The notes: generated by a model not told the origin, from the sequence alone. Counted from the stretch's first letter, positions 25,594-46,506 are shown. The stretch is 64,000 bases of DNA from a virus (IMGVR_UViG_3300025108_004223:62763-126762), one strand, 5' to 3'. Program-made: numbers and translations.

Positions 25594-26490
25594 TTATGTG
25601 CCCCATGCGTTTCCGAAGAGACTGATGTGGAGTCTTGGGGTAAAACGCCATCCCCTTTCCATACAGATTTCTGCGACTTCCTGGACGTTAAGATTATATT
25701 CTTCACTGCGACCACCCAACGGCATAAGATACACAGGGCATTCCAACCCAGCTTTGCGATATGCCTTGACAGCTCTATCAACATCAGCAATATCCTCGTT
25801 GTCAGCAACAACAAATTTAAGATAGATATCGCTGTTATCCACACGACTGTAGTTGAAAGCAACATCAGGCTTGATAGCATCTTCCCAAGATTCTCCCGAT
25901 ACTGTGAGCTTGGGTGAACAACTCCATGTGACTTTAATTCTGTCACTGTTGTGGAGATAGTCGAATAAATCGTCATGTAAATGTTGTGTAGTGTTTGTTT
26001 CAAATGTAACATTTTTTAAGTCCTTCATGCGTGGATGTTCAAATAGTTCTACATAAAGTCGTTGCCACGCTAACAACGGCTCACCACCTGTCATAATTAA
26101 ATGAATGTCTTGTCCATTGTCGCAAGTCCATTTGCCTTCAGGAGTAAGACTTAGTAGATGATTTACTACTTCGTCAACTTCTGCAAGTTTATTAAAATTT
26201 TTAAATTCTGGATAGATACTTGCATAAGTATCACAACCTGTATGTATAATAGGCAAGTCTGTAAATTGTGTCACGGTATCTGCAATACCACTATCAATTA
26301 ATCCTTTAACTTCATCATTATAACGATTACCTGCATCATGCTTTTCAGCTCTGCTTGGTTCGTTTCTTGGTAACCCAAAATTCATACAACGAAAATTGCA
26401 ACCAAATGTGCGTAAAAATACGCTAGGAACTCCTACGTATTGTCCTTCACCTTGCACACTATAAAATGCTTCTGAATATCTAAGTTTCAT
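25594..26490 (-). CDS. queE: 7-carboxy-7-deazaguanine synthase (radical SAM)
   Basis: EAFYSVQGEG..VG.PSVFLRTFGCNFRC...GCDT, TGGEP, ETN, CSPK, PRLH. Confidence 0.9.
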   Translation of the reverse strand: MKLRYSEAFYSVQGEGQYVGVPSVFLRTFGCNFRCMNFGLPRNEPSRAEKHDAGNRYNDEVKGLIDSGIADTVTQFTDLPIIHTGCDTYASIYPEFKNFNKLAEVDEVVNHLLSLTPEGKWTCDNGQDIHLIMTGGEPLLAWQRLYVELFEHPRMKDLKNVTFETNTTQHLHDDLFDYLHNSDRIKVTWSCSPKLTVSGESWEDAIKPDVAFNYSRVDNSDIYLKFVVADNEDIADVDRAVKAYRKAGLECPVYLMPLGGRSEEYNLNVQEVAEICMERGWRFTPRLHISLFGNAWGT

Positions 26491-26926
26491 TTACTAAGTT
26501 GCTCCATCTTTTTAATTTATTACGTTTAACTTTTGCACGGTCTTTTAAGTCTTCCATGGTAAACATTCCATGTTCTTCCATTAACTTCAGCATACAATAT
26601 ACATCACCTGCTTCTTCAATTAACTTTCTTTTATTAGTTAATGCATTCTGCACTTTACTATTGGCTTCTTCAATTGTATTAAACTTGCGAACTGTTTTAC
26701 TACACATCTGTGTTAGTTCACCACATTCTTCTGCGGTAATAATCATTAACTGTTGCAATGTGTTAAGTGGATGCTTCTCACGTGCTTCAGCTTCTTCATG
26801 CTTTTGTGCTTTGTTATTAAACAAGTCTACTGGATATTCTTCTTTTAGTCTGCGAGCCATATAGTCTTGATAACTTTCACGCTCGTTTTCGCCATTAAGT
26901 GGATTACCTTTACTGTATTGTGCCAT
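26480..26926 (-). CDS. MazG-like nucleotide pyrophosphohydrolase
   Basis: AEECGEL...EEAGDV (E-E-x-x-E / E-x-x-D). Confidence 0.75.
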   Translation of the reverse strand: MAQYSKGNPLNGENERESYQDYMARRLKEEYPVDLFNNKAQKHEEAEAREKHPLNTLQQLMIITAEECGELTQMCSKTVRKFNTIEEANSKVQNALTNKRKLIEEAGDVYCMLKLMEEHGMFTMEDLKDRAKVKRNKLKRWSNLVNET

Positions 26927-27165
26927 TAGTGTATTGTCCTATTATTAATTGGTGTTGCATCAGAAGTTATTTGATCGCCGTATATCATACCTAGTATAAC
27001 TATTATTGTATCTGGCAATTGATCAAAGTCTTCAATTTCAAATGGCGCAAATATTCCTTGAAATGATCCATCTGCTTTAAGCACTAAAGCATACTCGTCG
27101 TCTTCGAGCCAATCATTTATTTCACCTTCTCGTTTTTGTTCTGCCATTGTTTGCCTCAACATCAT
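26926..27165 (-). CDS. Hypothetical protein
   Basis: 79 aa; follows promoter 27180. Confidence 0.55.
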   Translation of the reverse strand: MMLRQTMAEQKREGEINDWLEDDEYALVLKADGSFQGIFAPFEIEDFDQLPDTIIVILGMIYGDQITSDATPINNRTIH

Positions 27166-27179
27166 TGTTTATACATATA

Positions 27180-27208
27180 ATTATATACGATTTCATACGA
27201 TTAGTCAA
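27180..27208 (-). promoter_or_regulatory. sigma70-type promoter
   Basis: TTGACT-N17-TATAAT. Confidence 0.75.
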
Positions 27209-27212
27209 CTGT

Positions 27213-27290
27213 TTATAATCCTGCTAGTTTGGCCAATAACCATAACATAAGAAATGCAAGTATGGCTATAAATAATGCTCCTTTAATCAT
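27213..27290 (-). CDS. 25-aa hydrophobic micropeptide
   Basis: MIKGALFIAILAFLMLWLLAKLAGL after AAGGAG RBS. Confidence 0.5.
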   Translation of the reverse strand: MIKGALFIAILAFLMLWLLAKLAGL

Positions 27291-27291
27291 A

Positions 27292-27465
27292 TTACTCCTT
27301 CTTTTTTATACTCCAGTTGCCGTTAGTAAGTTCTTTCCAAATCAAAGTATCGCCTACATCCCAACCCACTTGGTTTAATAGGTCAACTGGTAATTCAATA
27401 ACTAATTCTTCTGTTTTGCCGTCTTTTAGGACTTCTACAGTCCATGTTGTTTTTGGTTCTGTCAT
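27292..27465 (-). CDS. AbrB/MazE-like swapped-hairpin small protein (57 aa)
   Basis: Manual translation ...LVIELPVDLLNQVGWDVGDTLIW...; TAATG-coupled to prs. Confidence 0.6.
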   Translation of the reverse strand: MTEPKTTWTVEVLKDGKTEELVIELPVDLLNQVGWDVGDTLIWKELTNGNWSIKKKE

Positions 27466-28424
27466 TAAATCTTTTGTGTAAACAAACTGCTTACACTCTC
27501 CTCATTGCTTACCCTTCTTAGGGCCTCTCCAAACATTTCTGCTACGCTTACTACACGAGTCTTTTTACAATTGCTTGGACATCTAAAGTCAATAGTGTCT
27601 GTGATTACTAGTTCTTTTAACACACTCTTTTCAACTTTTTTACATGCTTCACCAGTTAATACTCCGTGTGTAATATATGCTCTTACACTTAATGCACCAG
27701 CATCCATAATAGCCTGTGCGGCATTACATAGTGTTCCACCTGAATCAATGATATCATCTACTAGAATAGCATGAGCACCTTCAACTTCACCAATTAGATT
27801 CATTACTTCACTGATGCCTGCTTTCGGTCTACGCTTGTCTACAATAGCAATATCACTGTGAAACATATCAGCAAACCTACGAGCTCTTACAGTTCCGCCT
27901 GCGTCTGGTGAAACAAATACTGTTTCTACTTCATTTACATTACTATCTTCTTTGTAGAACTGCTTTTTAATATCCCTTGCAAATGATATACGACTTGTTA
28001 AATCATCTACAGGAATATCAAAGAAGCCTTGAATTTGACCGGCGTGTAGATCCATTGTAAGGATTCTATCAGCACCGGATTCGGTTAGCAGGTTCGCTAC
28101 TAGTTTAGCCGTAATAGGAGTGCGGCTTGCACTTTTACGATCCTGCCTTGCATAACCGAAATAAGGTATGACTGCGGTAATACGACTAGCACTGCTACGC
28201 TTGGCCGCATCAATCATAATCATTAATTCCATTATATTATCGTTAACTGGTGTGCTTGTGCTTTGTATAATAAACACATCCTCACCTCTAACATTCTCTA
28301 AAAACTCTACACTGCTTTCGCCATCAGCAAATGTTTTAATATCAGCAGGCACAAGTGTAGCAAAACAATGTTGTGCAATTTTTTCTGCTAGTTCAATATT
28401 ACTGTTACCTGCGATGATTTTCAT
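27465..28424 (-). CDS. prs: Ribose-phosphate pyrophosphokinase
   Basis: [45 protein letters not shown]. Confidence 0.97.
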
Positions 28425-28579
28425 TGTGACTTCTCCTTGTCAATGAGTGTTAATATTTGTTGTGCGAACTCTTTACGACCTTCAAAGATGTCTTCAGTTC
28501 CATCTGTTAGTCCTTGCACGTCATCTTCTAGCTCGCTTTCGCATGCTTCTATTATTCTTTTTATAGCATCACCGCTCAT
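28421..28579 (-). CDS. Small acidic hypothetical protein (52 aa)
   Basis: Manual translation [17 protein letters not shown]...; fills the tdk-prs gap with overlaps at both ends. Confidence 0.55.
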
Positions 28580-29136
28580 TACTTACTCTCCCAATGTTCA
28601 TGGCAACGTGGTTCATATAGATCTGCGCCGCCTACGTTTACTCTGCCACCACTTTTTCTAAGTCGTTGCGTCTTACTGCATGGTTGTCCACATATATTAC
28701 AAAATGCAGTTATTTTCATAATACCATCTGCTAGTGCTAACAATCTGCCAGTTGTATCAAATGGTATTCCTCTACTGTCTTGATCTAATCCTGCACATAC
28801 AAAGTTAACACCTTCACGTAATCCTTCTTCTACAAACCATAGTGCTTCTTTAGGATCAAAGAATTGCACCTCGTCAATGAATACTGTGTGAAAGTTATAA
28901 GGTTTAATTGTGTAATTATCTTTTACTAATTCTAAATCAATAACACTAATAGCAGGGTGACTAAGTTTATTGTGTGTAACAATCTTGTCTGGGTCATACC
29001 TGTCATCTACTAATGGTTTTAGGACTAATGCTTTGTGTCCTGAATGCTCTAGAAAGAGCAGTCGTTTTAACAACTCACTGCTCTTTCCTGCAAACATAGG
29101 TCCTGCAATGACCTCTAGATTGCCTCGTTTATACAT
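28579..29136 (-). CDS. tdk: Thymidine kinase
   Basis: GPMFAGKS, FIDEVQFF, AGLDQD, C-x-x-C zinc ligands, YEPRC. Confidence 0.95.
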   Translation of the reverse strand: MYKRGNLEVIAGPMFAGKSSELLKRLLFLEHSGHKALVLKPLVDDRYDPDKIVTHNKLSHPAISVIDLELVKDNYTIKPYNFHTVFIDEVQFFDPKEALWFVEEGLREGVNFVCAGLDQDSRGIPFDTTGRLLALADGIMKITAFCNICGQPCSKTQRLRKSGGRVNVGGADLYEPRCHEHWESK

Positions 29137-29139
29137 TTA

Positions 29140-31923
29140 TTAAAAGCTCCATGTTAAGTTAAGACCTGCTGTCGTAACTGTTTCGTTTGTTCCTGCATAG
29201 TTCAAACGTGCTTCTGCGTGTGCTTTAACAAACATGTTGTCTGTTACTTTGAAGTTACGAAACACACCTAAGTCTACTTCACGTTGTGTAGCACTTAAAT
29301 CACTTTCGCTTGTTAAGTAATCTACATCACCAGTTGAACTAACACTACTTGCTGATGTAAATGTTGCACTGCCTTGCGTAATTGCTACAGGCACACTTGC
29401 TACAAATCCAAAGTCGCCGTTGCTAACGTTACGTTTGATACCAAGTGTTGCACTATTACTTAGCAAGTTACTTGCTGATGTCATCATGCTATCACCTACG
29501 TTTACTTTAGTAATACCAAACATTGCATTACCAAATAGTGTAACATCTTCTGTTAGTGCTTTATCTAAGTTATAGCCTGCATAGAATGTAGTTGCACCAT
29601 TAACATCCATAAGTGGATTGTCTGCAACATTACCAAGGAAACTATTACCTTCTGTTACTGCGCCAAACATAAACTTATCTACTGTAGTTGCAATTGCTAC
29701 ACTATCTTCATTAATATTTAGTGCGCCTACTTCCATTGGAATAACTTGTCCATTACCATATCCAAAATAATAGTCTGGAGCAAATCCCATGTCAGCGGCT
29801 TGTGTTGGATCTGCACTTCGTGTATCAGCGACAGTAATCATATCGTTACCATCTACATAAAAGTTACGATCATAATCATCAACTACCATTGTGTTGCTAA
29901 TACTACTAATATAAGCACCGCCACTTAATGCAAATGCACCCGAGTCTAAATTACTTGTAGCGCCTTCAATACGTCCACTAGTTGGAATACCTATTGCACC
30001 TTGTGGGCTAGTTGCTTCATCTAAGTCAAGCATACCTTGTCCATGAATGTTCTCATCATAGTTTCTAAGATCCTTGTCGGCTGTATTAAGTAACAACTGA
30101 ACAATGTTCTCGCCTTTCATGTATGGCCACATTTGATGCACAATACCTACTGCACCTGTAACTGCCGGTGCCGCCATTGATGTTCCGCTATTAGTTCTAT
30201 ATTCACCATTAGCACTTGTTGATGCTACATAACGACCTGGTGCTAGTATATACCAATCACTAATTCTAGTATCACTTGAACATTCACCATTCGTGCCATA
30301 ACACATTGTTCCTGCTCTGTTACTTGAGTTTGAGATTTTATCTGTTTTAAGATCCCATGACCCAACTACAATTGCTTTACCACCAAGCAACAATTCACCA
30401 TCTTCGTTTTCGGCAACTGCATAATGAGCCGGAAAGGTTGGAACATCTAAACGTTGGTTACCTGCGGCAAATACAATTACTGCTTCGTTACCTGACATTG
30501 CATCTGTAAGTTGTGGCAACATATAATTATCATCTACTGCTAATCCTGAGTAGCCTTCAAGTGCATATACTCCATCGTAACGTGAGTCCGTGCTATAAAA
30601 TACACCATCTCCTGCACTTTGTATACTACGCTTATATGTTGTGTCTACGTTATAGTTACCAGATACGTTTATTGCATCTGCACCATTGTTAACTGCCCAC
30701 TCAATACCGTTACCTAATGCACTAAACTCATAGTATCCATTGTCCCATGCTGTTTTACCAATAAGTAGTTTGGCATCTGGAGCAACACCTGTTGTTCCTA
30801 CACCATCTAAGTTTGCCGCGGCAATACCTGCCACGTGTGTTCCGTGTGAATACTTATTTTTATCGTCTATTGTTTCGTTTCCATCTGCACATATACTTGT
30901 AAGACATTTACTAGCAATAATCTTATCAGCAAACTCTGGATGATCTAAATCAATACCAGTATCAAGTATTGCTAACACACTACCTTCGCCTGTCCAACCT
31001 TTTGCCCAGGCTTCTGGTGCATTAATACTTTCTAAATTATTACCATTATTATATAATCCACTTTCACGTGTAATGTAATCAACATTAATTCTGCTATTCA
31101 TACTGTGAACTGCATCAATATATGTCTGTGTTCCACCTAATGATACATCGTCCATTGCTAAGTATTCTTCTACAGTTAATACATTTTCTGTTTTAATACC
31201 AATACCATCGTTGACAACGTTCACTGGTTCGTTGACTACATCAACGACAACGACCTCCTCCTCAACGACAACGGGTTCTTCAACAACTTCAACAACTTCA
31301 ACAGGTCGTTCAAGTTCATATGTGCTTACAAAATTACGTTCAGTTTCTGTTCGTGTAACTTCTTCTACATTTGTAGAAACTAGATCAGTAGTAACTTTCG
31401 TAAGAGAAGTATCATCACTAAAATGTGTTGTAGTGTATGTGCCTTTATAACTCTTTGTTGTTACTGTTTTTGTATATGTAATTACAACATCTTCATATAC
31501 ATTAACTGTATAATCTTCTGTAACTTCATCTTGTGTGGAAGATCGTGTGGCTACCTCAGGAGATTCTTCTACCTGATCATAGTTTGTATATTTGTATGTT
31601 TTGTGTGTTTCGGTGACTGCTTGTTCAAGTGCACCACCAATTAATATTGTAAACTTTTCAATCTCATTCTCATAAAAGTTTACTGTTTCGACTAGCCCTG
31701 CGGCCCAACTGTAATGTCCGTATTTTTCTGCTAGTGGCTTTAATGATTTAAGTCCGCTTTCATATGAACGGATCATACTTTTTGCAAAGTTATCTCTTGA
31801 TTCAACGTTTGCTATATTAGACACCATGTCATAATAACTGAATGGTGCCGCTGTTGCTGGTGCAGTAGCTGATATACCTATAACAGCAACCGCAATAGCG
31901 ATCCAACTTCTTACATTTCTCAT
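29140..31923 (-). CDS. Secreted subtilisin-like (S8) serine protease with predicted C-terminal beta-barrel
   Basis: Signal peptide; triad ILDTGID / HGTHVAG / GTSMAAP; beta-strand-like C-terminus ending LNLTWSF. Confidence 0.9.
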   Translation of the reverse strand: MRNVRSWIAIAVAVIGISATAPATAAPFSYYDMVSNIANVESRDNFAKSMIRSYESGLKSLKPLAEKYGHYSWAAGLVETVNFYENEIEKFTILIGGALEQAVTETHKTYKYTNYDQVEESPEVATRSSTQDEVTEDYTVNVYEDVVITYTKTVTTKSYKGTYTTTHFSDDTSLTKVTTDLVSTNVEEVTRTETERNFVSTYELERPVEVVEVVEEPVVVEEEVVVVDVVNEPVNVVNDGIGIKTENVLTVEEYLAMDDVSLGGTQTYIDAVHSMNSRINVDYITRESGLYNNGNNLESINAPEAWAKGWTGEGSVLAILDTGIDLDHPEFADKIIASKCLTSICADGNETIDDKNKYSHGTHVAGIAAANLDGVGTTGVAPDAKLLIGKTAWDNGYYEFSALGNGIEWAVNNGADAINVSGNYNVDTTYKRSIQSAGDGVFYSTDSRYDGVYALEGYSGLAVDDNYMLPQLTDAMSGNEAVIVFAAGNQRLDVPTFPAHYAVAENEDGELLLGGKAIVVGSWDLKTDKISNSSNRAGTMCYGTNGECSSDTRISDWYILAPGRYVASTSANGEYRTNSGTSMAAPAVTGAVGIVHQMWPYMKGENIVQLLLNTADKDLRNYDENIHGQGMLDLDEATSPQGAIGIPTSGRIEGATSNLDSGAFALSGGAYISSISNTMVVDDYDRNFYVDGNDMITVADTRSADPTQAADMGFAPDYYFGYGNGQVIPMEVGALNINEDSVAIATTVDKFMFGAVTEGNSFLGNVADNPLMDVNGATTFYAGYNLDKALTEDVTLFGNAMFGITKVNVGDSMMTSASNLLSNSATLGIKRNVSNGDFGFVASVPVAITQGSATFTSASSVSSTGDVDYLTSESDLSATQREVDLGVFRNFKVTDNMFVKAHAEARLNYAGTNETVTTAGLNLTWSF

Positions 31924-33602: not shown

Positions 33603-34154
33603 TTAAAAATTTCCGTAGTCTCTTTCGCCTTCCCACGGAAATACTACCCATACATCTTTTTCCATCTTATTGATTTCCATAGCTGTATAGTCTACATCGC
33701 CAAAGTCACTTGCACTGTTATCTAACAGACTAGCAAACCTAACGTTATTGCCCCAAACTGTATCCCAACCTTTGTCGTTAGGTAAACAGCCTGCAGGCCA
33801 ATCCTTTTTAATCCAATCCATAGTTTTACCACTATCATTAATATCATCAAAGATTAATATATTCTTTCTGTGACTGGTGTGAGCTAATCCCTTGCCACAG
33901 TAACCAAATGCATCTTCGGCCATCCAGAAATTTGATTCTGGACCACTGTAATTGTCTCCAGTATCTCTAAAACGCACATCTAATGCATGCATTTTAATTC
34001 CTGTAATATTGGACATCATAACTGCTGGCACTAAGCCGCCACGTGTCATGCCAACAATATAATCTGGACGCCAGTTGTCTGCAAACATAAGATTGTTAAC
34101 AGTGTTAACCATATGTTCAATGTCTTTCCATGTGTAGTATACTTTGTTAGACAT
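33603..34154 (-). CDS. Type I phosphoribosyltransferase (purine PRTase-like)
   Basis: IVGMTRGGLVPA, ILIFDDINDSGKT PRPP loop, WVVFPWE. Confidence 0.88.
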   Translation of the reverse strand: MSNKVYYTWKDIEHMVNTVNNLMFADNWRPDYIVGMTRGGLVPAVMMSNITGIKMHALDVRFRDTGDNYSGPESNFWMAEDAFGYCGKGLAHTSHRKNILIFDDINDSGKTMDWIKKDWPAGCLPNDKGWDTVWGNNVRFASLLDNSASDFGDVDYTAMEINKMEKDVWVVFPWEGERDYGNF

Positions 34155-34368: not shown

Positions 34369-34890
34369 CTATAGTGATTTTAATACGTTATCTGGTGTTG
34401 TTTCGCCATATGGGTCTGGGTCAGCGGCCGAACTATCAGGTTCAATAAACATTTTAGTTACTGTGCCGTTGTCAACAATCATTGCATAACGTCTGCTACG
34501 CTTGTTGAATCCCACACCACTCATATCAATTAATTGACCCATACCTTCTGTAAATGTTCCATTACCATCTGGTAGCACTTTAACATTCTTAAGGTTGTTT
34601 GCATCTCGCCATGCGTTCATTACAAATGCATCATTAACTGAACAGCAATAGATATCATCTACGCCTTTGTCATAAAATTGTTGTGCATTTTCTTCAAAGC
34701 CTGGCAGTTGATATGTTGAGCAAGTAGGTGTAAATGCACCTGGCAGACTAAACACTACAACTTTCTTGTTAGAAAAGATTTCGTTTGTAGTTAAATCTCC
34801 CCACGTTGATGGGAAGATTTCACATGAGTTAGGTTCAGCATCATCGCTTGGCACTCTAACTTTAAATATTACATTTGGTGTTGCTTTCAT
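34369..34890 (-). CDS. Peroxiredoxin (Prx5/redoxin type)
   Basis: PGAFTPTCS, SVNDAFVM, DGNG.FT..MG, RS.RYAM; track start 34953 overlaps the previous gene. Confidence 0.92.
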   Translation of the reverse strand: MKATPNVIFKVRVPSDDAEPNSCEIFPSTWGDLTTNEIFSNKKVVVFSLPGAFTPTCSTYQLPGFEENAQQFYDKGVDDIYCCSVNDAFVMNAWRDANNLKNVKVLPDGNGTFTEGMGQLIDMSGVGFNKRSRRYAMIVDNGTVTKMFIEPDSSAADPDPYGETTPDNVLKSL

Positions 34891-34909
34891 TTTAGTTTCG
34901 CTTTCATTG

Positions 34910-35248
34910 TTAATCTTTAAATTTAGTTCCACAGTCTGGACAAGTGTGTTCATGGTTATAACTATTCATTGCTTCTGGTGAATCTTTATCCCACCATAAC
35001 TTGAATAAAAAAGCATTTTCGGGCTCTTTAAATTTATAACAATATTGTCCAGTCTTTTTATCAGCAGTATAGTCATAATCAATATTTTTCTTACAATCTA
35101 TACCAACTAAGAAGTTTCTTGCTCCAGGTAAAGGCCTCACTTTAGTTCCCCATATAGGCTGACCTTGTTGATTTTTAAAAGAGTATGAGTAAGTCATATC
35201 CTTTTTATTTGTTGCCTCTACTAATACTTCTGTCCATTCACTTAACAT
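34910..35248 (-). CDS. Hypothetical protein with C-terminal CxxC
   Basis: Ends HTCPDCG. Confidence 0.55.
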   Translation of the reverse strand: MLSEWTEVLVEATNKKDMTYSYSFKNQQGQPIWGTKVRPLPGARNFLVGIDCKKNIDYDYTADKKTGQYCYKFKEPENAFLFKLWWDKDSPEAMNSYNHEHTCPDCGTKFKD

Positions 35249-35815: not shown

Positions 35816-36514
35816 CTACTTAGCTGCAAAATCTGATTGGAGTTTAATGTTATCCATAAACTCTTCTTTAGTTGCAGGGTCAGTTTTAAATGCACCCTTA
35901 AGAACTGTAGTTTGTGTTAAACTACTGTGTGCCATAATGCCTCTGTTCTCACAACATCCGTGTGTTGCTTGAATGTAAACACCTACATCATCTGACTTGG
36001 TTACTTTCATAATCTCACGTGAAATATCCATTGCAAGTTCTTCTTGTAGTGTGCCACGCCTTGCACACCATTGTGCGATACGTGTATATTTAGATAAGCC
36101 AATTAGTGTGTCAGCGGCAATAATGCCAATGTATGCTACACCTGTTACTGGCTGATGGTGATGTGAACAAACACTTTTAAGTTCACTTCGCACAACTAAC
36201 ATACCATCATAACGTTCGTTAGTTACGTTGTCTGGTTCATTAGGAAATGCTGTTGCCGGTGGTGCTGTTTCATAACGCCCTGCCATTAATTCATTGTAAT
36301 ACATTTTAGCTAAACGCTTGCCTGTATCCATGCTGTTAGGATCTGTTTTCCTATCAATAACTAATGTATCTAATACACTTTCAAAGGCAAGTGTTGCCTC
36401 TTCAATTAGTTCTTCTCTATCACCATTTTGTAATACTTCACTAATGTTGTCACCCGCCCAATAGCGAATGCCTGCTTCTTCTAATTTGTTTCTAATTTGT
36501 TTTGACTTACTCAT
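35816..36514 (-). CDS. folE: GTP cyclohydrolase I
   Basis: SVCSHHH, GLSKY.R, LQEEL, HGCCENRG, T-fold C-terminus. Confidence 0.95.
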   Translation of the reverse strand: MSKSKQIRNKLEEAGIRYWAGDNISEVLQNGDREELIEEATLAFESVLDTLVIDRKTDPNSMDTGKRLAKMYYNELMAGRYETAPPATAFPNEPDNVTNERYDGMLVVRSELKSVCSHHHQPVTGVAYIGIIAADTLIGLSKYTRIAQWCARRGTLQEELAMDISREIMKVTKSDDVGVYIQATHGCCENRGIMAHSSLTQTTVLKGAFKTDPATKEEFMDNIKLQSDFAAK

Positions 36515-36528
36515 TTTATTCTCCGAGT

Positions 36529-37482
36529 TTACGACGAGGATGTCGTTTTAGTTTTTAAATACCAATCGTAGGCTGTTTTTACTATGTCGCTGAGTCCATG
36601 TTGTGGGACCCAGTCTAGTTCTTTTGTTGCTTCTACATCTGCTATAAGCATAGGTGGATCACCTGCTCTAGCTTCTGCAAATGCTGTGTTAGGCATTAGT
36701 GGAGTCATGTAACTAACTGCATCAACAATCTCTTTATTACTGTTACCTTCTCCGCTACCTAAGTTAAATACGTGAGCACCAGTGTTATTTTCTAAATACT
36801 GTAGTGATGCATAAATGCCACTTGCAATATCTTCTACATGTATGTAATCTCTAATACATGTTCCATCTGGTGTAGGATAATTATTGCCAAAGAAAGTAAA
36901 TGTCTTACCTGCCATTGCACTTTCCATTACTCTTGCAATAATATGTGTTGCTTGTTTCTCTTGACCCATCTCACAATCTGAGTCAGCGCCTGCAACATTA
37001 AAGAAACGTAAACTAACACTGTTCATTCCATATGCAATAGCATAATCTTTTAGCATTATTTCTGTCATACGCTTGCTCATTCCGTATGGATTTGTAGGTT
37101 CGTTTTTATCTGTAACCCTACATATTCCATCTTCTACTATGCCATAACAGGCAGCCGAACTTGCGAAAACAAATTTGTTAACGCTCTGAATCTTGCAGTC
37201 TTGCATTAACGCTAAAGTTCCTTGCACATTATTTTGATAATAAGTGTGAGGATCTGTTACACTAGGACCCACTAGACTAGTGGCCGCTATATGGACACAA
37301 GCATCAACTCCAAGCAATAGGTCTTGGATGTCGTTATAGTCACGATCATCATGGAATACTTTGTAGTAGTCGTGACGTGGTTTGTGCCTGTCAACTCCAA
37401 TAACTTCGTGTCCTGCTCTTGTTAATGTCTTACACGTTTGACTGCCGATATATCCGGCTGCTCCTGTTACAACAATCTTCAT
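36529..37482 (-). CDS. galE: UDP-glucose 4-epimerase
   Basis: TGAAGYIGS, FASSAACYG, YGMSK (YxxxK), LRFFNVAGA, TPDGTCIRDYIHV. Confidence 0.9.
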   Translation of the reverse strand: MKIVVTGAAGYIGSQTCKTLTRAGHEVIGVDRHKPRHDYYKVFHDDRDYNDIQDLLLGVDACVHIAATSLVGPSVTDPHTYYQNNVQGTLALMQDCKIQSVNKFVFASSAACYGIVEDGICRVTDKNEPTNPYGMSKRMTEIMLKDYAIAYGMNSVSLRFFNVAGADSDCEMGQEKQATHIIARVMESAMAGKTFTFFGNNYPTPDGTCIRDYIHVEDIASGIYASLQYLENNTGAHVFNLGSGEGNSNKEIVDAVSYMTPLMPNTAFAEARAGDPPMLIADVEATKELDWVPQHGLSDIVKTAYDWYLKTKTTSSS

Positions 37483-38651
37483 GCGTATTTTGCCTCCGCA
37501 ACGAAGTCTCTGTAACGGTTGCCGCTACGTAGCCATTGTTCACCATTTCCTTGCATAATATCAATCATACGATCGATAGTGCCATTATTCCAATCACTAA
37601 TCTTACCCATGTTCTCAGAAGGTGCATCAAGACCTGTGAGGATCTTTTCAACTGCATGTTCTTTACTCCATGGTGTATATAGACGTGTGTGATCGTTTGC
37701 AAACGTTTCAGGAAAACTACGATATGCAGGGTAAACTACATTACAACCTAACGCATCTGCTTCACTGACGGTATTAGATACCCAGTCTTGCAATGCACAA
37801 TTAAACAATACCTTACTGTCATTAACAATGTCATAGTATTGATTCTTCTTTAGGTCTTCGTATATTTTTAACTTACCTTCGTTTTGCATGTTATAGGCAC
37901 GGTCCAAATACTTCTGGTTGTTGCTACGCAGTGGCCCGCCACTTAGCACTGCAAACTCTACATCAGGTCTTTGTTGCAATACCATTTCAATAACATCCAT
38001 GTAAAAGTCAGGTTGTTTCTCCTGATCGAATCGGGCAGCAAAAATTACACGGTTGTTACGTTGATCAAATGGTTTAATATTATCCACACGACTTTGCACT
38101 TCTTCTTTACCAAAGCTAAGTCCTGATATATTATAAAGTGGTGCTTCCCAATTTGCAATACGCATGTGTGCAATCATTTCTTCGTTTGTTGCCAACACTG
38201 TTGCAAATTGATTAACCATTTGTTCATACAAGCTCATCCATTTACCCATGCCCCATACGTGGACAAAGTCATCTGGATCTACTGCTTGTGCCAGACACCT
38301 TACATAAACTGTAGGGCGTTGTTCTTGTGGAATTTGATTCATAATATACGGAAGGGATTCAATACCAGGTTGAAACATATCTTCAAAGAAGATTGCATCT
38401 TTACCTGTGCATTCGCCGTTACGCATCATTTGAACCAAGTTCATAATCTGTGACATTCCAAAGAAACTTCTACCATGTGCGTCGAGCACTTGGCCAACAC
38501 TAATAGCTTTAGTGTCATCAATAGTTTCTCCTGGAACGATAGTATAATCTATTCCTCGTTTTTGAAATACCGCTTCTGCCCAGTCTTGCAACTGTAATGT
38601 GTAGCGGCCTTCGTATGGTTCGAGGCCCATATAAAATAGTTTACGAAACAT
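37479..38651 (-). CDS. GT-B fold glycosyltransferase (GT4-like)
   Basis: FAARFDQEKQP, EADALGCNVVYP (E-x7-E-like region), C-terminal Rossmann domain. Confidence 0.7.
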   Translation of the reverse strand: MFRKLFYMGLEPYEGRYTLQLQDWAEAVFQKRGIDYTIVPGETIDDTKAISVGQVLDAHGRSFFGMSQIMNLVQMMRNGECTGKDAIFFEDMFQPGIESLPYIMNQIPQEQRPTVYVRCLAQAVDPDDFVHVWGMGKWMSLYEQMVNQFATVLATNEEMIAHMRIANWEAPLYNISGLSFGKEEVQSRVDNIKPFDQRNNRVIFAARFDQEKQPDFYMDVIEMVLQQRPDVEFAVLSGGPLRSNNQKYLDRAYNMQNEGKLKIYEDLKKNQYYDIVNDSKVLFNCALQDWVSNTVSEADALGCNVVYPAYRSFPETFANDHTRLYTPWSKEHAVEKILTGLDAPSENMGKISDWNNGTIDRMIDIMQGNGEQWLRSGNRYRDFVAEAKYA

Positions 38652-38988
38652 TGTTCTCCTCTTGTTTATATACTAGTTTACCAACATGAATCTTTAGCTT
38701 TTTAGGGCTACGTTCACGATGCATCTGCACATGAACATCATATGTATATGCATTTTCTTTTTCAACGTTGTCTACATTGAAGCTAAAAATCTTCCATGAA
38801 TGTTTAAGATCATTCAAGTAAGAAATAAACAAAGAGCGAATATTACTGACATCTTTGTCGCTGTGCATCAACCCATCATAAGGTTGAATAATTTTTAGTA
38901 GATCGTATTTCACATCATTAATATTATATTGGCCTGAAATACGATACCGATTAGCATGGCTAGTCTTGTTTGTAGTAGTGTTTGACAT
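38641..38988 (-). CDS. Hypothetical protein
   Basis: GAAGGA RBS; lies between QueD-like and GT genes. Confidence 0.55.
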   Translation of the reverse strand: MSNTTTNKTSHANRYRISGQYNINDVKYDLLKIIQPYDGLMHSDKDVSNIRSLFISYLNDLKHSWKIFSFNVDNVEKENAYTYDVHVQMHRERSPKKLKIHVGKLVYKQEENNVS

Positions 38989-39025
38989 GTTTCATATTCC
39001 TTCTTCTGTCAAATTAGTTTACGTT

Positions 39026-39409
39026 TTAATCATCTGTAAAAAGCATATTAGCACCATTCTCATTATCTTCAGCAACACTAATTTTAAGTTCTCGCTTTGG
39101 ATACTTGGTAAGAATAGTTTCTGCTAATTCTTCTGCAATCATTTCACAACTGCGGTGGTTTAGTTCTAATGTTCCATCACTATAAAGTGATTCCAGCCAA
39201 CGTTTGAATTGAATAAATTCAATATCTCTATCGTTGTGGGTTACACTAATTTCTACACGAAAGTGAAAAATATGCCTATGAGCATATCCTAGAAATGAAA
39301 CATCATCCCATTTACCTGTTGCTAATGCTGGATCGTCTTTAGCGGCTGGATATAAATGCACACCTTCTTTGCTAAACGTTACCCAGATATTACGTGACGC
39401 TATCTGCAT
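39026..39409 (-). CDS. queD: QueD-like T-fold protein (6-carboxytetrahydropterin synthase/PTPS family)
   Basis: H...HRH metal ligands, EFIQFKR (DF..LK equivalent), SCEMIA (T.ENLA equivalent), VAEDNENGA. Confidence 0.65.
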   Translation of the reverse strand: MQIASRNIWVTFSKEGVHLYPAAKDDPALATGKWDDVSFLGYAHRHIFHFRVEISVTHNDRDIEFIQFKRWLESLYSDGTLELNHRSCEMIAEELAETILTKYPKRELKISVAEDNENGANMLFTDD

Positions 39410-39595
39410 TTACTTAGTCTCAACGCCGGCTTTAGCACGTTCAAGTTTTAGCAATTCCCATAGCTTCCAATCAATTGCTTCAAGAAACTTCATAAGTTTC
39501 TCTGCATCAATTACGTTTTCACCAACTGGTGTTGTTGGTTCTACTGTTGGTTCAGTAGTAGTTTCTTCGTCAAGTAGTCTTACTTTTTTTACCAT
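39410..39595 (-). CDS. Hypothetical protein
   Basis: AGGAG RBS; 61 aa. Confidence 0.6.
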   Translation of the reverse strand: MVKKVRLLDEETTTEPTVEPTTPVGENVIDAEKLMKFLEAIDWKLWELLKLERAKAGVETK

Positions 39596-39605
39596 AATAT
39601 ATCTC

Positions 39606-40142
39606 CTATTTGATTATATGATCTTGTGTATATTGATCCCAATCTGTAAACACACTGCGATCCATTAAGTTATGAAGGCTATGAACCCATACACCTTCGT
39701 TAGTAGCATCAAAATCAACATCGTCAATCTTAACACATGCATTATATCCCATTTGATCAACATAAGGAATTCTTATGCTTATCATTGGAATAAATCTGCG
39801 ATACTCAGTGTAGCCACTTTCAAGGACATAATCTGAATATTTGTTTTCAAAGTCTAGTGTTACCCAAAAGTCTGCTCTAAGCAAACTCGTTATCATGGGA
39901 TCCCAGGCTTTGTTTTCTTCATCAGTGCCATGTGGCAACTGAATATTAAATGACATGTTTGCACCTAAGTAAATATGTTTACAATCATGTTCTTTTGCTA
40001 ATACTAAGATTTCTGCAACGGATGTGTCTGTTCCCACTACAAAGAGTGTCTTCATACCATATGCTGGTGTGCGTTCTATTTCTTTGCCTACAAACAATGT
40101 AGTGCCAGTTACACCATCTGCTTTATCATAGTTTCTTTTCAT
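39606..40142 (-). CDS. Hypothetical protein in deazaguanine cluster
   Basis: 178 aa between TGT-like and QueD-like genes; HIYLGAN motif. Confidence 0.65.
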   Translation of the reverse strand: MKRNYDKADGVTGTTLFVGKEIERTPAYGMKTLFVVGTDTSVAEILVLAKEHDCKHIYLGANMSFNIQLPHGTDEENKAWDPMITSLLRADFWVTLDFENKYSDYVLESGYTEYRRFIPMISIRIPYVDQMGYNACVKIDDVDFDATNEGVWVHSLHNLMDRSVFTDWDQYTQDHIIK

Positions 40143-40342
40143 TACTGTTCTCGTTCTGCAATTGTTGTTTCTAGTTTAACGATTTCTTCTTTAATTGAAA
40201 GTTTTTCTTTTTTCATTTTATGAAGTTCTATATCGTTTATATGATTACTATACGCTTCTTTTATATCTTTGTCAAGTGTTTTATGCTTAATAACTAAAGC
40301 ATCTTTGTGCCTTAGTAGACTGTTTATTGTTCCTGTTCCCAT
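40142..40342 (-). CDS. DUF465/YdcH-like coiled-coil protein
   Basis: KHKTLDKDI...MKKEKLSIKEEI. Confidence 0.65.
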   Translation of the reverse strand: MGTGTINSLLRHKDALVIKHKTLDKDIKEAYSNHINDIELHKMKKEKLSIKEEIVKLETTIAEREQ

Positions 40343-40355
40343 TTCACTCTCCTTG

Positions 40356-41849
40356 TTATAATGTTTCTAAGAAGTCTTCAGCCGCTTCGGCTTGTTCAGA
40401 AGTAAACTCTCCATCGGATTCTTCTTGAACTGCATCACCGGTATCAAACAAACTATCAAACGCACCTTGTGTCGTTTTAATAGTTTTCATACCGCTGAAG
40501 TGTGTTAGCATTGGCTGTGCTTCTTCTAGCATCTGCATAGGTGTCTCACTCTTAAATAATTTATTTACAAATTCAGTAACATAAATTACATCACGTGGAA
40601 CCCATAAGTCAAATTCACTTTGCCCAGGCTTAACCTTATTCCATTCTAAGTGACTAGGCTGATATTTTGTTGTAGCAATGTCGGCCAGTGTGTTAGCACG
40701 TTGACATGCTTCAATGTGTTGATAAACGTTATGTGCCATTAGCAAGAAGTATGAGAAACTATCCCAACTAGTCTTGCCTTCCTTGCCAATTTTATTAAGC
40801 ATACCCGGACCCATATAACATAAGTCACCCATGTTCATACGTTCTCCAATAGGACTGTTAAAAGGAAAAGGTATTTTACTGTGCTGAAAACGTTTATCGT
40901 CTACTGCCTGTTCCATAACATAACTAAACTTATTATTCCTATGAACGTGTTGTGTATACGCTTGCCCCTTGGCAGTAGTAATAAAAGGACTTGCCGCATC
41001 ATATGTCACCATCATGTCAGGATTAATAGTTTCTCTTATGTTACGCTGAATTGCTGTAAAGATACAAGACCAATTCAGTTTGCTTGTGCCTAAGTAGTGA
41101 ATTAAATCTCTACCTGGATCAAGCATCTTCTCATCACGCATAACAATAAGTCTGCGTAATGCAAGATGTAATTGCTTCATGTTGTAACCAGCCATTGCCC
41201 AACCTTCAAATGGATAATGCTTAACTGCTGAATACCAATCGTCTGCTTGTTGTTCGTTGTTGCCTTGTAACACATTTAAGAACTTAGTGTTACCTGTTCT
41301 GTTTCTAACAAAGTAATCATTGTTATGCATTGTATATTCTAAACAGTCTACCCAGTCTGTTAGTCCTGTTTTAGCATTAAGCGGTGGAGCCGCTGCTAAT
41401 GTAGGAATATCTAACACCATACTATAATCTGCGGTATGTTCTAACCAGTTTAGAATTGTCTTACGCAAGTCATCATTTGTTTTAAAGTTTGGCCAATCAC
41501 ATTTGATTACACCTGTAGCAATCTGGAACCCACCACTGTCGCCTAGGATAAAACTATTATTCCTATCACGCTTTTGAATCATTGGTTCCTGTTCGTCACT
41601 CTTAACTGTGTCTCGAGTGGCGTGTCCGGCAGAGTAAAGACCCCACTTGTAATTGTAGTAATTGTCCTTAGGCTTTAAAAAGTCAAAGCCATCAATTCCA
41701 TATTCAAAGCCTGCAGGCATACGCTCAGGCTTAACAAAGTCTGGACGCTTTTGTGCTTGTGCTATGAACTTAGAATAGAAACTACTGATGCTCGGTAAGA
41801 ACACACTGTAGTCTTTATTGCTGGTTGTTAGGTCTTTTCTGTCTGCCAT
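40356..41849 (-). CDS. tgt: Guanine transglycosylase (TGT fold; DpdA/DpdA2-like, probably DNA-acting)
   Basis: GDSGGFQ, VLDIP, VLQG, GWAMAG, HYLG, YDAASP align with TGT catalytic blocks; no C-terminal zinc site; next to sliding clamp. Confidence 0.8.
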   Translation of the reverse strand: MADRKDLTTSNKDYSVFLPSISSFYSKFIAQAQKRPDFVKPERMPAGFEYGIDGFDFLKPKDNYYNYKWGLYSAGHATRDTVKSDEQEPMIQKRDRNNSFILGDSGGFQIATGVIKCDWPNFKTNDDLRKTILNWLEHTADYSMVLDIPTLAAAPPLNAKTGLTDWVDCLEYTMHNNDYFVRNRTGNTKFLNVLQGNNEQQADDWYSAVKHYPFEGWAMAGYNMKQLHLALRRLIVMRDEKMLDPGRDLIHYLGTSKLNWSCIFTAIQRNIRETINPDMMVTYDAASPFITTAKGQAYTQHVHRNNKFSYVMEQAVDDKRFQHSKIPFPFNSPIGERMNMGDLCYMGPGMLNKIGKEGKTSWDSFSYFLLMAHNVYQHIEACQRANTLADIATTKYQPSHLEWNKVKPGQSEFDLWVPRDVIYVTEFVNKLFKSETPMQMLEEAQPMLTHFSGMKTIKTTQGAFDSLFDTGDAVQEESDGEFTSEQAEAAEDFLETL

Positions 41850-41854
41850 TTATA

Positions 41855-42604
41855 CTATACCGTTAATGCTGGAAGAATGTAATCATATTTGCCAATGCCT
41901 GAGTCTACACTAATCTGTAGGGCACCACGTTTACTAATTTCCATTACACATGTTCCTGACATGCCTAACTTCAAAATAGCTAATACTTGTGCTAGTGGCC
42001 AAGCATAGCCTTCGTTTAGTTCTCCGCTAATGTTTTTAGCAAATGTTCGCTTACCTGTAAATGATCCATCTGGAGCACCTACTGTAACAATTAAGTCACC
42101 GTCTTCTGTTTTAACAGTAAAGTTTGGCTCGATACCGCCGTAAATTCCTGCGATAGCATTAAGTTCTGCAACTTTATTTTTAGTTGGTTCAAAAGTAACA
42201 TCCCAATCAGCACCTTTAAACTTTACAGTTTGTAGTGTCTGTTCGATAATCTCTTTTGACATAAAACGATATTGGTCTGTGTTGCCATCTACATCTTTAA
42301 ACATTAGATGATCTGGCATTTGAACTCCATTACGTTCGCGTGAAACAACTTCAACGGAAGCTGTATCTTCTTGATAGTTTGATAGTGATGTTACACCTGC
42401 TAAGAAACCTAGGTTACCTAATCCAAACTCACCTTTAAAGTCTGGTTGTGCATTGTGTAATGTTGCGTGTAAGATAACTGTGCGATCGGCATCCATTGCA
42501 TCTAGCTCTGTTGCTTCATCTGTTCCTGTTACTTTTACATTTGTAATAAAACCAAGACCTGCTGTATGTTTTACGATGTCTTGAACTACGTCACGTGTGC
42601 TCAT
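41855..42604 (-). CDS. Sliding clamp (T4 gp45-like)
   Basis: 249-aa two-domain alpha/beta protein with EFGLGNL, QYRFM and terminal YILP pattern typical of phage clamps. Confidence 0.65.
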   Translation of the reverse strand: MSTRDVVQDIVKHTAGLGFITNVKVTGTDEATELDAMDADRTVILHATLHNAQPDFKGEFGLGNLGFLAGVTSLSNYQEDTASVEVVSRERNGVQMPDHLMFKDVDGNTDQYRFMSKEIIEQTLQTVKFKGADWDVTFEPTKNKVAELNAIAGIYGGIEPNFTVKTEDGDLIVTVGAPDGSFTGKRTFAKNISGELNEGYAWPLAQVLAILKLGMSGTCVMEISKRGALQISVDSGIGKYDYILPALTV

Positions 42605-42642: not shown

Positions 42643-42671
42643 ATTGTATAATAGTATTTAGAAAATGTCAA
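42643..42671 (-). promoter_or_regulatory. sigma70-type promoter for clamp/TGT operon
   Basis: TTGACA-N17-TACAAT. Confidence 0.7.
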
Positions 42672-44732: not shown

Positions 44733-45418
44733 GTGTCACTTGCCAATTGTTTACTAAGAAATTCTTCTGCATAGTATCTACTTGCACTTGTCCTTGGATG
44801 CCAATTGTCTGGCATAAACTCTTGATCGGTTTTGATACACCAGTCGACTAACGGTTCATCAATATAGTTTACATTGTTCTTGTCGAACACATCTGTAATT
44901 TGTTCCCACGTTTTTTCTGGGGCGTGTGGTATTATACCTGTCCAACCTCTAAATGCATATACTGTTACGCCTGCATTTGCTAATAGACATAACTTACTTA
45001 CTACTCTTGTTAACAGTATGATATGATTATGGTGTTCGTCATAGTGCATACCATGGCTTAGGCTGGAACCCCATAGCATATACTGTTTGCCAAAGTATCC
45101 TTCCCATAGAAGACTTCGTTGGTCTGGAAGTATATTGCTCAGCTCCCTTAACTTCGTTTTGTGGTCTATCAACTCTTTCGAAACTCCTGATGAGTATATT
45201 CCACCGCCTCTTTCCATACCAGTCATTTGATATACTACAGTTAAATCTTTTGTTGTGTTGTGATATAAGTATTCGTCTATACAGTCTAGCAGTTGTTGAT
45301 TGCCGCCGCCACCGAACCCATAGTTTGTATGTATATCGAATTGTCCAGCTTGATTGCATGTATACGGCCACGAGTCAATTGGAGCTAAACTACATCCTAG
45401 AGTCAGTAACTTCTTCAT
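44729..45418 (-). CDS. SGNH/GDSL hydrolase-like protein
   Basis: LGCSLA, GFGGGGN, DNWHP. Confidence 0.55.
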   Translation of the reverse strand: MKKLLTLGCSLAPIDSWPYTCNQAGQFDIHTNYGFGGGGNQQLLDCIDEYLYHNTTKDLTVVYQMTGMERGGGIYSSGVSKELIDHKTKLRELSNILPDQRSLLWEGYFGKQYMLWGSSLSHGMHYDEHHNHIILLTRVVSKLCLLANAGVTVYAFRGWTGIIPHAPEKTWEQITDVFDKNNVNYIDEPLVDWCIKTDQEFMPDNWHPRTSASRYYAEEFLSKQLASDT

Positions 45419-46506
45419 GTAAACTGCTCCGCAAATGGATCAAACTCTGTGCCACATTTCATACTGCAAACACCTAGCTTACCTTCTTCAATGCTTTTCT
45501 TATTCCAACTGTTTTGTATGTCTTGCATAATGCCTGTTTTGAATACGCCTTCGACTCCATGTATCTTTGCATCAAGAGCCTCTTTTCCGCCAACACCATC
45601 TATGAAATCCCATATCTGTTCTACCTTTGGATCTTTGTGCCACCACTTATACATACGACCAGCTGTCCAACAACAAGGCAACACAAGGCCTTCTGCTGTA
45701 ATAAAGATGTTAGGATCTTTGCCTGCTACTTTACATTTAATATCACAACTATCATAATAGTTTTTCATACCACCATATGTTTTTTCAATCTCTTTTTGTT
45801 TCAGTAGTGCTAGGTTTTGATACTCTGCTTTCTTTGGCTTAGCCAAGTTCTGCATTGTAGCACCTTTGCGATTCTTTGCTTGGTGTGTTTCTTTAGACTC
45901 ACTGTTAGCATTAATAAAGCGTCCAGTTTTCTTTTTCATAAACTTCTCAACACCCCATTGCTTTGCTAATTGTTCAGCACGTTCTACATCACATTCACTA
46001 TGTTCAAATATTAAATAGTCCCAACGAGCTCTGCCACCTGCTTCAATAAATGCTCGCATGTTGCGTTCTACTTTATCCCATTGCACACCTTGTCTATACA
46101 AATGGTTTGTGTTTTCTAATCCATCAACACTAAAGATAACTGCACCGTTCTTGCCAATAGTCTTAGCAAGTTCTCGCCACCATGTAACATCTCTCGCACC
46201 TGCATTTGTATTCATACTTAACCATATGTTTTCATTCATTGCACGTGTGTAATCAAATATTTCTAATGTATCTCTAGCACTAATTGGGTCACCTAAGTTA
46301 CCACACATATATAATGTGTTTAGTTGCTGTAAGAAGTCTGGATCAAATATATTAATACAATCATCTAAACTTAGTTCTTGTAAGTTATTCTTAATGTGCT
46401 GATTGACTGCACCACCGTTCTCATTACGGTCACACATAGGACAACTTGCATTACAACGTTGTGTAACTTCTAAGTGAACTGTGTTTATATCTTCATACTT
46501 ATACAT
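45415..46506 (-). CDS. Radical SAM protein with C-terminal SPASM/twitch domain
   Basis: CNASCPMC, GNLGDP, FSVDG, LPCC...CSMKC. Confidence 0.9.
   Translation of the reverse strand: MYKYEDINTVHLEVTQRCNASCPMCDRNENGGAVNQHIKNNLQELSLDDCINIFDPDFLQQLNTLYMCGNLGDPISARDTLEIFDYTRAMNENIWLSMNTNAGARDVTWWRELAKTIGKNGAVIFSVDGLENTNHLYRQGVQWDKVERNMRAFIEAGGRARWDYLIFEHSECDVERAEQLAKQWGVEKFMKKKTGRFINANSESKETHQAKNRKGATMQNLAKPKKAEYQNLALLKQKEIEKTYGGMKNYYDSCDIKCKVAGKDPNIFITAEGLVLPCCWTAGRMYKWWHKDPKVEQIWDFIDGVGGKEALDAKIHGVEGVFKTGIMQDIQNSWNKKSIEEGKLGVCSMKCGTEFDPFAEQFT

Follow-up and report, generated by a model that had tools for sequence, protein, structure and literature searches.

Examining a 64,000-nucleotide stretch of viral DNA (hereafter the window; bases 62763–126762 of the 126,762-bp IMG/VR virus contig IMGVR_UViG_3300025108_004223), we found a minus-strand run of genes (35816–42604) in which genes for making and inserting a 7-deazaguanine base enclose a glycosyltransferase (GT) and GalE, a uridine diphosphate (UDP)-glucose 4-epimerase. 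We interpret this run as a DpdL-type module for the hypermodification of phage DNA, and we give about an even chance to the GT making a sugar-bearing 7-deazaguanine, a step for which we reason from gene linkage. Beneath this interpretation lie gene identities, a tRNA-guanine transglycosylase (TGT) fold and a co-occurrence of the genes that is both tight and wide, all of which we observed. The contig is a giant-phage fragment, estimated by CheckV to be about 35% complete, and the window stretch or near-identical DNA was present in at least 12 marine metagenome runs from several studies. A first-pass annotation, made from the sequence of the window, had placed ten open reading frames (ORFs) in the run and proposed a glycosylated deazaguanine as its product; all ten ORFs lie where it put them, on the minus strand and at the same coordinates.

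Evaluating the precursor genes, we assigned FolE (GTP cyclohydrolase I, the first pathway step; 35816–36514, minus strand) by PF01227 (E 6.7e-39) and phrog_2197 (E 8.7e-44), and QueE (7-carboxy-7-deazaguanine synthase; 25594–26490, minus strand) by phrog_2076 (E 7e-50), with QueE located 9.3 kb past FolE, as first annotated. This QueE is 32% identical to that of the Pseudomonas jumbo phage PA5oct and retains C31 and C35, invariant in the family alignment, and its matches to the QueE models of NCBIfam (E 1e-12 to 1e-8) fall under their cut-offs. Outside the window and about 40 kb upstream, the contig possesses a PTPS/QueD match (55.8 bits, Pfam PTPS) at positions 22938–23348 (locus L003, 1465–1953), whose motif reads CxxxHGY and not CxxxHGH, one motif histidine being replaced by tyrosine. 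QueC and QueF, already reported missing from the window, were matched nowhere on the 126-kb contig; with about 35% of the genome represented there, this absence is provisional.

The 127-amino-acid (aa) ORF at 39026–39409 (minus strand), initially called QueD-like, turned out to be DpdL. It carries LGYAHRHIF at residue 40, which is the published LxxxHRHxF signature of DpdL that replaces the CxxxHGH of QueD, and it is 35.6% identical to CGPG_00067 of the Cellulophaga phage phiST (E 2e-8, 91% coverage) and 58% identical to PA5oct gp318, within a family that jackhmmer gathered from 13 phages. In Cui, Hutinet et al. (NAR 2023, PMC10516641), DpdL is a QueD paralogue predicted to decarboxylate 7-carboxy-7-deazaguanine (CDG) to 7-deazaguanine (DG), and 2'-deoxy-7-deazaguanosine (dDG) replaces every G in phiST DNA. 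The company of DpdL here consists of FolE, QueD, QueE and a DpdA-like enzyme, with no QueC on this partial genome. Because the supposed QueD-like gene is DpdL, the base initially suggested (CDG-derived, or 7-cyano-7-deazaguanine (preQ0) made with host QueC) is less likely than a DG derivative. Synthesis would thus run as far as CDG, with a further step to DG most likely, which is the chemistry behind dDG in phiST.

The enzyme predicted to exchange guanine for 7-deazaguanine in DNA is a 497-aa DpdA-like protein, here of 'Z type' (40356–41849, minus strand). Its AlphaFold model (AF2; predicted local distance difference test score, pLDDT, 89.9, from a 43-sequence alignment) retrieved only TGTs among the top 50 Foldseek matches (E ~4e-7) and aligned by VIA-align at Z 19–20 over about 300 residues (rmsd, root-mean-square deviation, 4.2–4.6), which confirms the TGT-fold transglycosylase with a DSGGFQ motif first recognized from the sequence. 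Across 43 diverse members of the family, there is no variation at D104, S105 and G107 of this motif or at D147 and D284, and profile residues 98–224 align to TGT residues 99–234. Aspartates serving as general acid/base, in base recognition and as nucleophile are invariant among TGTs and bacterial DpdA (PMC10164549), and the spacing of D104, D147 and D284 resembles that of Asp95, Asp130 and Asp256 in bacterial DpdA (PMC10164549), an equivalence drawn from spacing and not from superposition. The fold, together with these aspartates, would imply base exchange via Asp284. At the sequence level the resemblance is faint: the protein had no match in the PDB, its profile reached TGT only at E ~0.7, and Pfam TGT matched nothing on the whole contig even at E 10. 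Its unnamed family is large, comprising more than 7,800 clusters at 90% identity and 958 representatives at the 50% level.

Turning to the sugar step, we identified the GT (37479–38651, minus strand) as GT4-like from PF00534 (33.7 bits, cut-off 26.4) and PF13692 (27.6 bits, cut-off 27), and it is the sole PF00534 gene on the contig. Three residues, R207, K212 and E297, do not vary among 32 sequences, the most distant at 18% identity, and probably form a nucleoside diphosphate (NDP)-sugar donor site; because of this invariance, the protein is apparently an active NDP-sugar transferase.

The GT is tied to deazaguanine genes in every collection that we searched. A tblastn search of 50,697 phage records returned six, all of them inside deazaguanine clusters: the T4-like cyanophage BUCT-ZZ01 (73% identical), Xanthomonas phages BUDD and X1, Burkholderia phage BCSR5 and, twice, Acidovorax phage ACP17. 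An iterated search added PA5oct gp317, directly after the transglycosylase, and a 'glycosyltransferase' beside DpdL in Sinorhizobium phage Phosso. We then counted neighbors in two IMG/VR surveys. The close survey, a pattern scan that found 394 relatives, covered the closest 80 (GT at least 73% identical) and revealed DpdL at 75, the window-type transglycosylase at 74, GalE at 76 and FolE at 67 of them. The diverged survey was seeded with the short GT subtype, using a pattern from a four-sequence subset (all eight diverged GTs together varied too much), and found more than 580 relatives; in the 80 kept, with GTs about 20% identical to that of the window, we found DpdL (71/80), a large transglycosylase (68/80), QueE (59/80) and FolE (57/80), with DpdL at all 29 loci that had full 10-kb flanks and at least one deazaguanine gene at all 80. 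Pooling both surveys, DpdL accompanied the GT at 146 of 160 loci, a transglycosylase of the window or ACP17 type at 142 of 160, and deazaguanine genes at 160 of 160. Among 185,579 prokaryote species genomes (one each), the GT matched only two loci, both with DpdL directly upstream and an adjoining transglycosylase, while the GT patterns match about 970 IMG/VR loci. A failure of the GT to travel with dpd genes in related phages had been named beforehand as grounds for abandoning the proposal; its co-conservation with them proved to be strong, and this linkage spans T4-like cyanophages, several jumbo-phage lineages, and phages of beta- and gammaproteobacteria.

The linkage is also selective with respect to the kind of transglycosylase. 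Three groups can be distinguished, namely a phiST type (259–422 aa), an ACP17 type (416–437 aa) and the window type (about 500 aa), the last being also the type of Vibrio phage 2.275.O, PA5oct and Phosso. A relationship between the window and ACP17 types is evident from hhalign (probability 97%, E 3e-11), with the motifs DSGGxQ, HxLG and SYDS in common, whereas the phiST type carries MDNS in place of DSGGxQ. Comparing the window type with the phiST type (CGPG_00065, DpdA3) gave an hhalign probability of 25.8% over 72 columns and separate jackhmmer groups, and with probabilities of 26% and <1%, respectively, neither the window nor the ACP17 type is detectably close to it; among the DpdA kinds, the enzyme of the window is thus related to the ACP17 type and is not a phiST-type DpdA3. 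The GT accompanies only the two large types. In a control survey of 80 IMG/VR loci fetched by phiST-type DpdA3, DpdL was present at 65, while the GT and two further genes of the window run, encoding 178 and 249 aa, were found at none (0/80 for each). In Vibrio phage 2.275.O (locus L002, 8917–16000), the window-type enzyme stands with QueC, QueF, an amidotransferase, FolE and a YhhQ-like transporter; DpdL and GT are both missing, and the GT position is taken by an amidoligase-like gene (PF12224, E 1.8e-4). This pattern indicates that the GT tracks the combination of large transglycosylase and DpdL, and the window-type family may insert different bases in different phages. Within one class of DpdL cluster, the GT is thus a core gene and nearly restricted to phages.

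GalE (36529–37482, minus strand) is securely assigned (TIGR01179, 300.1 bits against a cut-off of 262.3), with its GxxGxxG and YxxxK motifs intact (GAAGYIG, YGMSK). It adjoins the GT at 76 of the 80 close loci as opposed to 4 of the 80 diverged ones, so the expected co-conservation of GalE with dpd genes held within the clade of the window phage and failed beyond it. We therefore regard GalE as a clade-specific addition, one that makes real use of a UDP-hexose more credible.

Taken together, these genes would support the following route. FolE, the QueD located elsewhere on the contig and QueE would convert GTP to CDG by the established pathway, and DpdL would, as predicted in the literature, remove the carboxyl group to yield DG. 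Judging from its fold and aspartates, the 497-aa enzyme would swap guanine in phage DNA for the deazapurine via a covalent Asp284 intermediate. After insertion or just before it, the GT4-like enzyme would, as its gene linkage suggests, transfer a hexose from a UDP-sugar onto the deazapurine, and in the clade of the window GalE would interconvert the donors UDP-galactose and UDP-glucose. The resulting sugar-bearing 7-deazaguanine would shield the DNA from restriction and other nucleases, and a phosphoribosyltransferase and a nearby phosphoribosyl pyrophosphate (PRPP) synthetase would most likely recycle the displaced guanine. Since DG has no side-chain oxygen or nitrogen, the sugar would have to be attached to the pyrrole ring as a C-glycoside, at its electron-rich C7/C8, or else as an N2 glycoside. 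Taken jointly with the presence of glycosylated DG in all phages that combine a large transglycosylase, DpdL and GT, this chemistry stands at slightly under an even chance. To our knowledge, neither a C7/C8 C-glycoside nor an N2 glycoside has a precedent in DNA. A hydroxymethyl-pyrimidine was also considered as the target of the GT and set aside as unlikely, the only thymidylate-synthase-family gene scoring as a full-length ThyA (324 bits) and lying about 60 kb off.

Support for DNA as the substrate comes from the family context and from PA5oct, whose DNA resists restriction enzymes at G-containing sites (PMC12191111); the first-pass annotation had argued for DNA from linkage to a sliding clamp, and the clamp label itself found no support (see below). 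In the same vein, its proposal of a sugar-bearing deazaguanine gains a strongly linked GT, with a base probably other than the one it suggested and a GalE largely confined to one clade. When dpdL and dpdA of ACP17 were expressed alone in E. coli, no dDG was formed, and a possible requirement for a further enzyme was proposed (PMC10516641).

Several points weigh against a glycosylated DG. The sugar on the base is a proposal read from gene linkage. At C7, DG bears neither a hydroxyl nor an amino side chain and offers no obvious acceptor, and a C- or N-glycoside would be an unusual product of a GT4-like enzyme. The GT-B class of the enzyme is inferred from its Pfam matches. GalE is missing from most diverged GT loci and so is not essential to the module. 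Further, the zinc motif CxCxxCx22H that is conserved in TGT and bacterial DpdA is absent from the 497-aa protein (partial conservation is seen only for C344, in 24 of 43 family sequences, and H373, in 38 of 43), and the protein matches no curated TGT or DpdA model in Pfam (PF01702), NCBIfam or PADLOC. The decarboxylase activity of DpdL is itself a prediction (PMC10516641).

We considered whether the GT may instead be a helper of the large transglycosylases (the Y/Z types), acting by transient glycosylation of the free base, a nucleotide or the enzyme, or as a structural partner, in which case phage DNA would end up with sugar-free dDG, like that of phiST. We judge this unlikely while granting it real weight, as it would account for a GT that is found only with the Y/Z types and never with phiST-type DpdA3 even though both travel with DpdL, for the missing acceptor group on DG, and for the inactivity of ACP17 dpdL plus dpdA alone in E. 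coli (PMC10516641). The invariant nucleotide-sugar-binding residues and a dedicated GalE in the window clade point instead to real sugar turnover. We also know of no precedent for a GT serving as a transglycosylase cofactor. A complex prediction for the transglycosylase and the GT scored 0.00, was run without controls, and says nothing either way.

Less probable still is a module that makes unglycosylated dDG while the GT and GalE act on an unrelated acceptor (a host envelope glycan, a phage protein or a small molecule) and sit in the operon for co-expression. Phage GTs and GalE do often remodel surface glycans (general knowledge; PMC7824862), and among solved structures, the nearest sequences to this GT belong to GT4 enzymes that modify proteins and glycans (for example SdgB and PglH/WlaC). 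Such an acceptor, however, would not lead one to expect the linkage described above, with deazaguanine genes at every one of the 160 surveyed GT loci and with the GT placed beside DpdL or the transglycosylase in all six isolate records and both cellular-genome loci, across lineages; a surface-glycan gene would have little cause to be found there.

A further alternative moves the modification ahead of replication: a phosphoribosyltransferase would turn the base into a nucleotide, kinases and a reductase would carry it to the deoxynucleoside triphosphate, a MazG-like enzyme would remove dGTP and the polymerase would incorporate the product, leaving the TGT-fold protein to act on nucleotides or tRNA. 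A xanthine/guanine-type phosphoribosyltransferase is frequent in the module, nearby genes encode PRPP synthetase, thymidine kinase, a P-loop kinase and a MazG-like pyrophosphohydrolase, phiST too has MazG beside DpdL, and a full exchange of G, as in phiST and CP220, is more readily imagined ahead of replication (PMC10516641). We nevertheless hold this route to be improbable, as DpdA is reported from every deazaguanine phage and a post-replicative route has been argued for (PMC10516641). A transglycosylase with all three catalytic aspartates stands at nearly every locus, and guanine salvage would explain the phosphoribosyltransferase equally well. Lastly, eukaryotes glycosylate queuosine in tRNA, and the nearest solved folds of the 497-aa enzyme are TGTs, such that one may picture a glycosylated queuosine-like wobble base in tRNA resembling eukaryotic galactosyl- or mannosyl-queuosine. 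This we regard as scarcely credible, since QueC, QueF, QueA and QueG are absent, DpdL clusters are tied to dDG in DNA in phiST (PMC10516641), and PA5oct DNA resists G-site restriction enzymes (PMC12191111).

Returning to a sugar-bearing 7-deazaguanine in DNA, we compared the module with its closest known systems. The phiST cluster (FolE, QueD, QueE, DpdL, DpdA3) resembles it in possessing the same precursor genes and a DpdL, marked by LxxxHRHxF, that adjoins a transglycosylase, and in lacking QueC, often with phosphoribosyltransferase and MazG-like genes near loci of this type; it differs in its transglycosylase subfamily, and the GT, 178-aa and 249-aa genes are additions of the window module that appear at none of the 80 phiST-type loci. 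ACP17, BUDD and BUCT-ZZ01 possess the DpdL–GT–transglycosylase trio together with FolE, QueD, QueE and a related transglycosylase family, unlike the window in their shorter transglycosylases (416–437 aa) and in having neither GalE nor the 249-aa gene. GTs of this group are 20–26% identical to that of the window, except for BUCT-ZZ01 at 73%. The dpdA and dpdL genes of ACP17 have been cloned, and the available part of that account does not discuss the GT (PMC10516641). Besides its conserved GT, BUCT-ZZ01 encodes, in the interval separating FolE from the transglycosylase (locus L026, 5007–6350), a 447-aa GT1-like protein unrelated to that GT, such that a disaccharide or a second modification is possible.

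The arrangement recurs in PA5oct, where gp314–gp322 reproduce in the same order a 249-aa gene, a Z-type transglycosylase (37.7% identical), the GT-like gp317, DpdL, a phosphoribosyltransferase and QueE, with a 172-aa epimerase-like fragment in place of GalE. Bacterial DpdA and TGT (PMC10164549) correspond to the 497-aa enzyme in their TIM-barrel (triosephosphate isomerase) TGT fold, three invariant aspartates and predicted double-displacement exchange, whereas that enzyme is set apart by the lack of a zinc site and of a Pfam TGT match, by a helical extension of the C terminus bearing an acidic tail, and by having no DpdB or DpdC partners. The T4 alpha- and beta-glucosyltransferases, which act on 5-hydroxymethylcytosine (general knowledge; PMC13216743), are likewise phage UDP-sugar transferases located by base-modification genes and presumed to counter restriction; the GT of the window differs in being GT4-like by Pfam, in its purine-analogue base without a hydroxymethyl handle, and in showing no sequence similarity that we found.

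A full-text literature search, whose scope left out most subscription journals, found no description of a glycosylated deazaguanine in DNA or of this GT. All sugar-bearing DNA bases known to us are pyrimidines (glucosyl- and arabinosyl-hydroxymethylcytosine, and base J). If true, the proposal would give natural DNA a new class of base, the first sugar-bearing purine analogue found in any genome, and one that would be widely distributed among T4-like cyanophages and marine giant phages. The targeting of PA5oct-like phages by nucleases that recognize hypermodified DNA would then be explained; the base may also account for the inactivity of ACP17 dpdL and dpdA alone, and it would bear on therapeutic Pseudomonas phages and on the sequencing and restriction of marine viral DNA, where the module is abundant. 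With six cultured phages carrying the module, the question is open to direct test. Points that this analysis adds are the linkage of GalE and how far it reaches among clades, the strict partition of the GT according to the kind of transglycosylase, backed by its control, the missing zinc site and the connection to the published PA5oct restriction data.

Within the run itself, the GT and GalE genes overlap by 4 nucleotides (nt) and the end of GalE lies 14 nt from the start of FolE, in agreement with the first reading of the sequence, which had also placed a promoter at 42643. We found an 11/12 match to a sigma-70-like consensus there (42671–42643, minus strand) and a perfect 12/12 match further upstream (42780–42752, minus strand), both of them consensus matches located ahead of the run. 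No convincing minus-strand terminator was found inside the gene run. A third such match (11/12; 40275–40247, minus strand) lies inside the ORF of a DUF465 protein and upstream of the 178-aa gene, where it is a possible internal start for the part with DpdL, GT, GalE and FolE. Contigs from RNA libraries, which can contain DNA, match the operon, some exactly, over GalE/GT (37156–38075) and the transglycosylase (41256–41412). A megablast search of the 6.8-kb region against the phage collection gave no match.

The first gene after the promoters encodes the 249-aa protein (41855–42604, minus strand), a member of phrog_12062 (E 3.7e-49), a family with no named function. It is present at 72 of 80 close and 60 of 80 diverged GT loci and tightly linked to the window-type transglycosylase. 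Initially labeled a sliding clamp, it found no support for that label in Pfam, the PDB or hhalign: neither its sequence nor a 25-sequence profile found any match in Pfam or the PDB, and hhalign gave a probability of 0.1% against a gp45-like clamp, such that the label is backed only by the depositor's wording in phage Phosso and by a position beside DNA polymerase genes. The PA5oct homologue (locus L001, 7915–8661) is annotated as a structural virion protein detected by electrospray ionization tandem mass spectrometry (ESI-MS/MS), which would be odd for a replication clamp.

Four small ORFs complete the run, all on the minus strand. The 178-aa protein (39606–40142) is a conserved alpha/beta protein and frequent module member (67/80 close and 42/80 diverged GT loci, and also ACP17), with a model at pLDDT 88.3. 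Against solved structures, its best Foldseek match had E 0.015 and a wide VIA-align search peaked at Z 6.2, which is background level; QueE chains reached Z 5.6–6.0, but hhalign against the QueE alignment gave a probability of 0.35%, which lends no support to reading the protein as a reduced QueE, and Atlas feature matches scored at most 0.84, at chance level. The DUF465 protein (40142–40342; PF04325, 31.4 bits against a cut-off of 25) is a small coiled-coil and a lineage-specific passenger, present at 15 of 80 close loci. A 61-aa ORF (39410–39595) is likewise lineage-specific, occurring in close relatives only, and a 115-aa ORF (38641–38988), without a family match in Pfam, PHROG or NCBIfam, is an optional member found at 38 of 80 close loci.

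Beyond FolE, the xanthine/guanine-type phosphoribosyltransferase (33603–34154, minus strand) was assigned by PF00156 (E 1.2e-7) and by the xanthine phosphoribosyltransferase model NF006613 (E 1.4e-10, under its cut-off), and it is frequent in both cluster classes (56/80 close, 44/80 diverged and 34/80 phiST-type loci). With the PRPP synthetase, it most likely salvages guanine displaced from DNA, as we infer. A MazG-like nucleoside triphosphate pyrophosphohydrolase overlaps the start of QueE, with PRPP synthetase and thymidine kinase next (26480–28424, 28579–29136) and the P-loop kinase also near, and the MazG-like, PRPP synthetase and thymidine kinase genes form a nucleotide-supply block, one that may feed the deazaguanine pathway or clean up after it. 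The interval from the FolE end of the module to QueE also contains a subtilase-family protease of 927 aa (29140–31923) and a peroxiredoxin (34369–34953), the latter lying within the module in a few relatives.

More broadly, the 126-kb contig possesses sixteen radical S-adenosylmethionine domain matches, in the window for example at 2932–5245, 8341–9603, 45415–46506 and 61273–62292. Across IMG/VR relatives, the module is a mosaic: in five of them (L012–L016), the transglycosylase is 95–96% identical to that of the window with neighbors at 46–84%, and in two others (L022, L023) the neighbors are 85–98% identical with a transglycosylase at only 71–72%, a pattern that suggests recombination swapping the transglycosylase gene among related phages.

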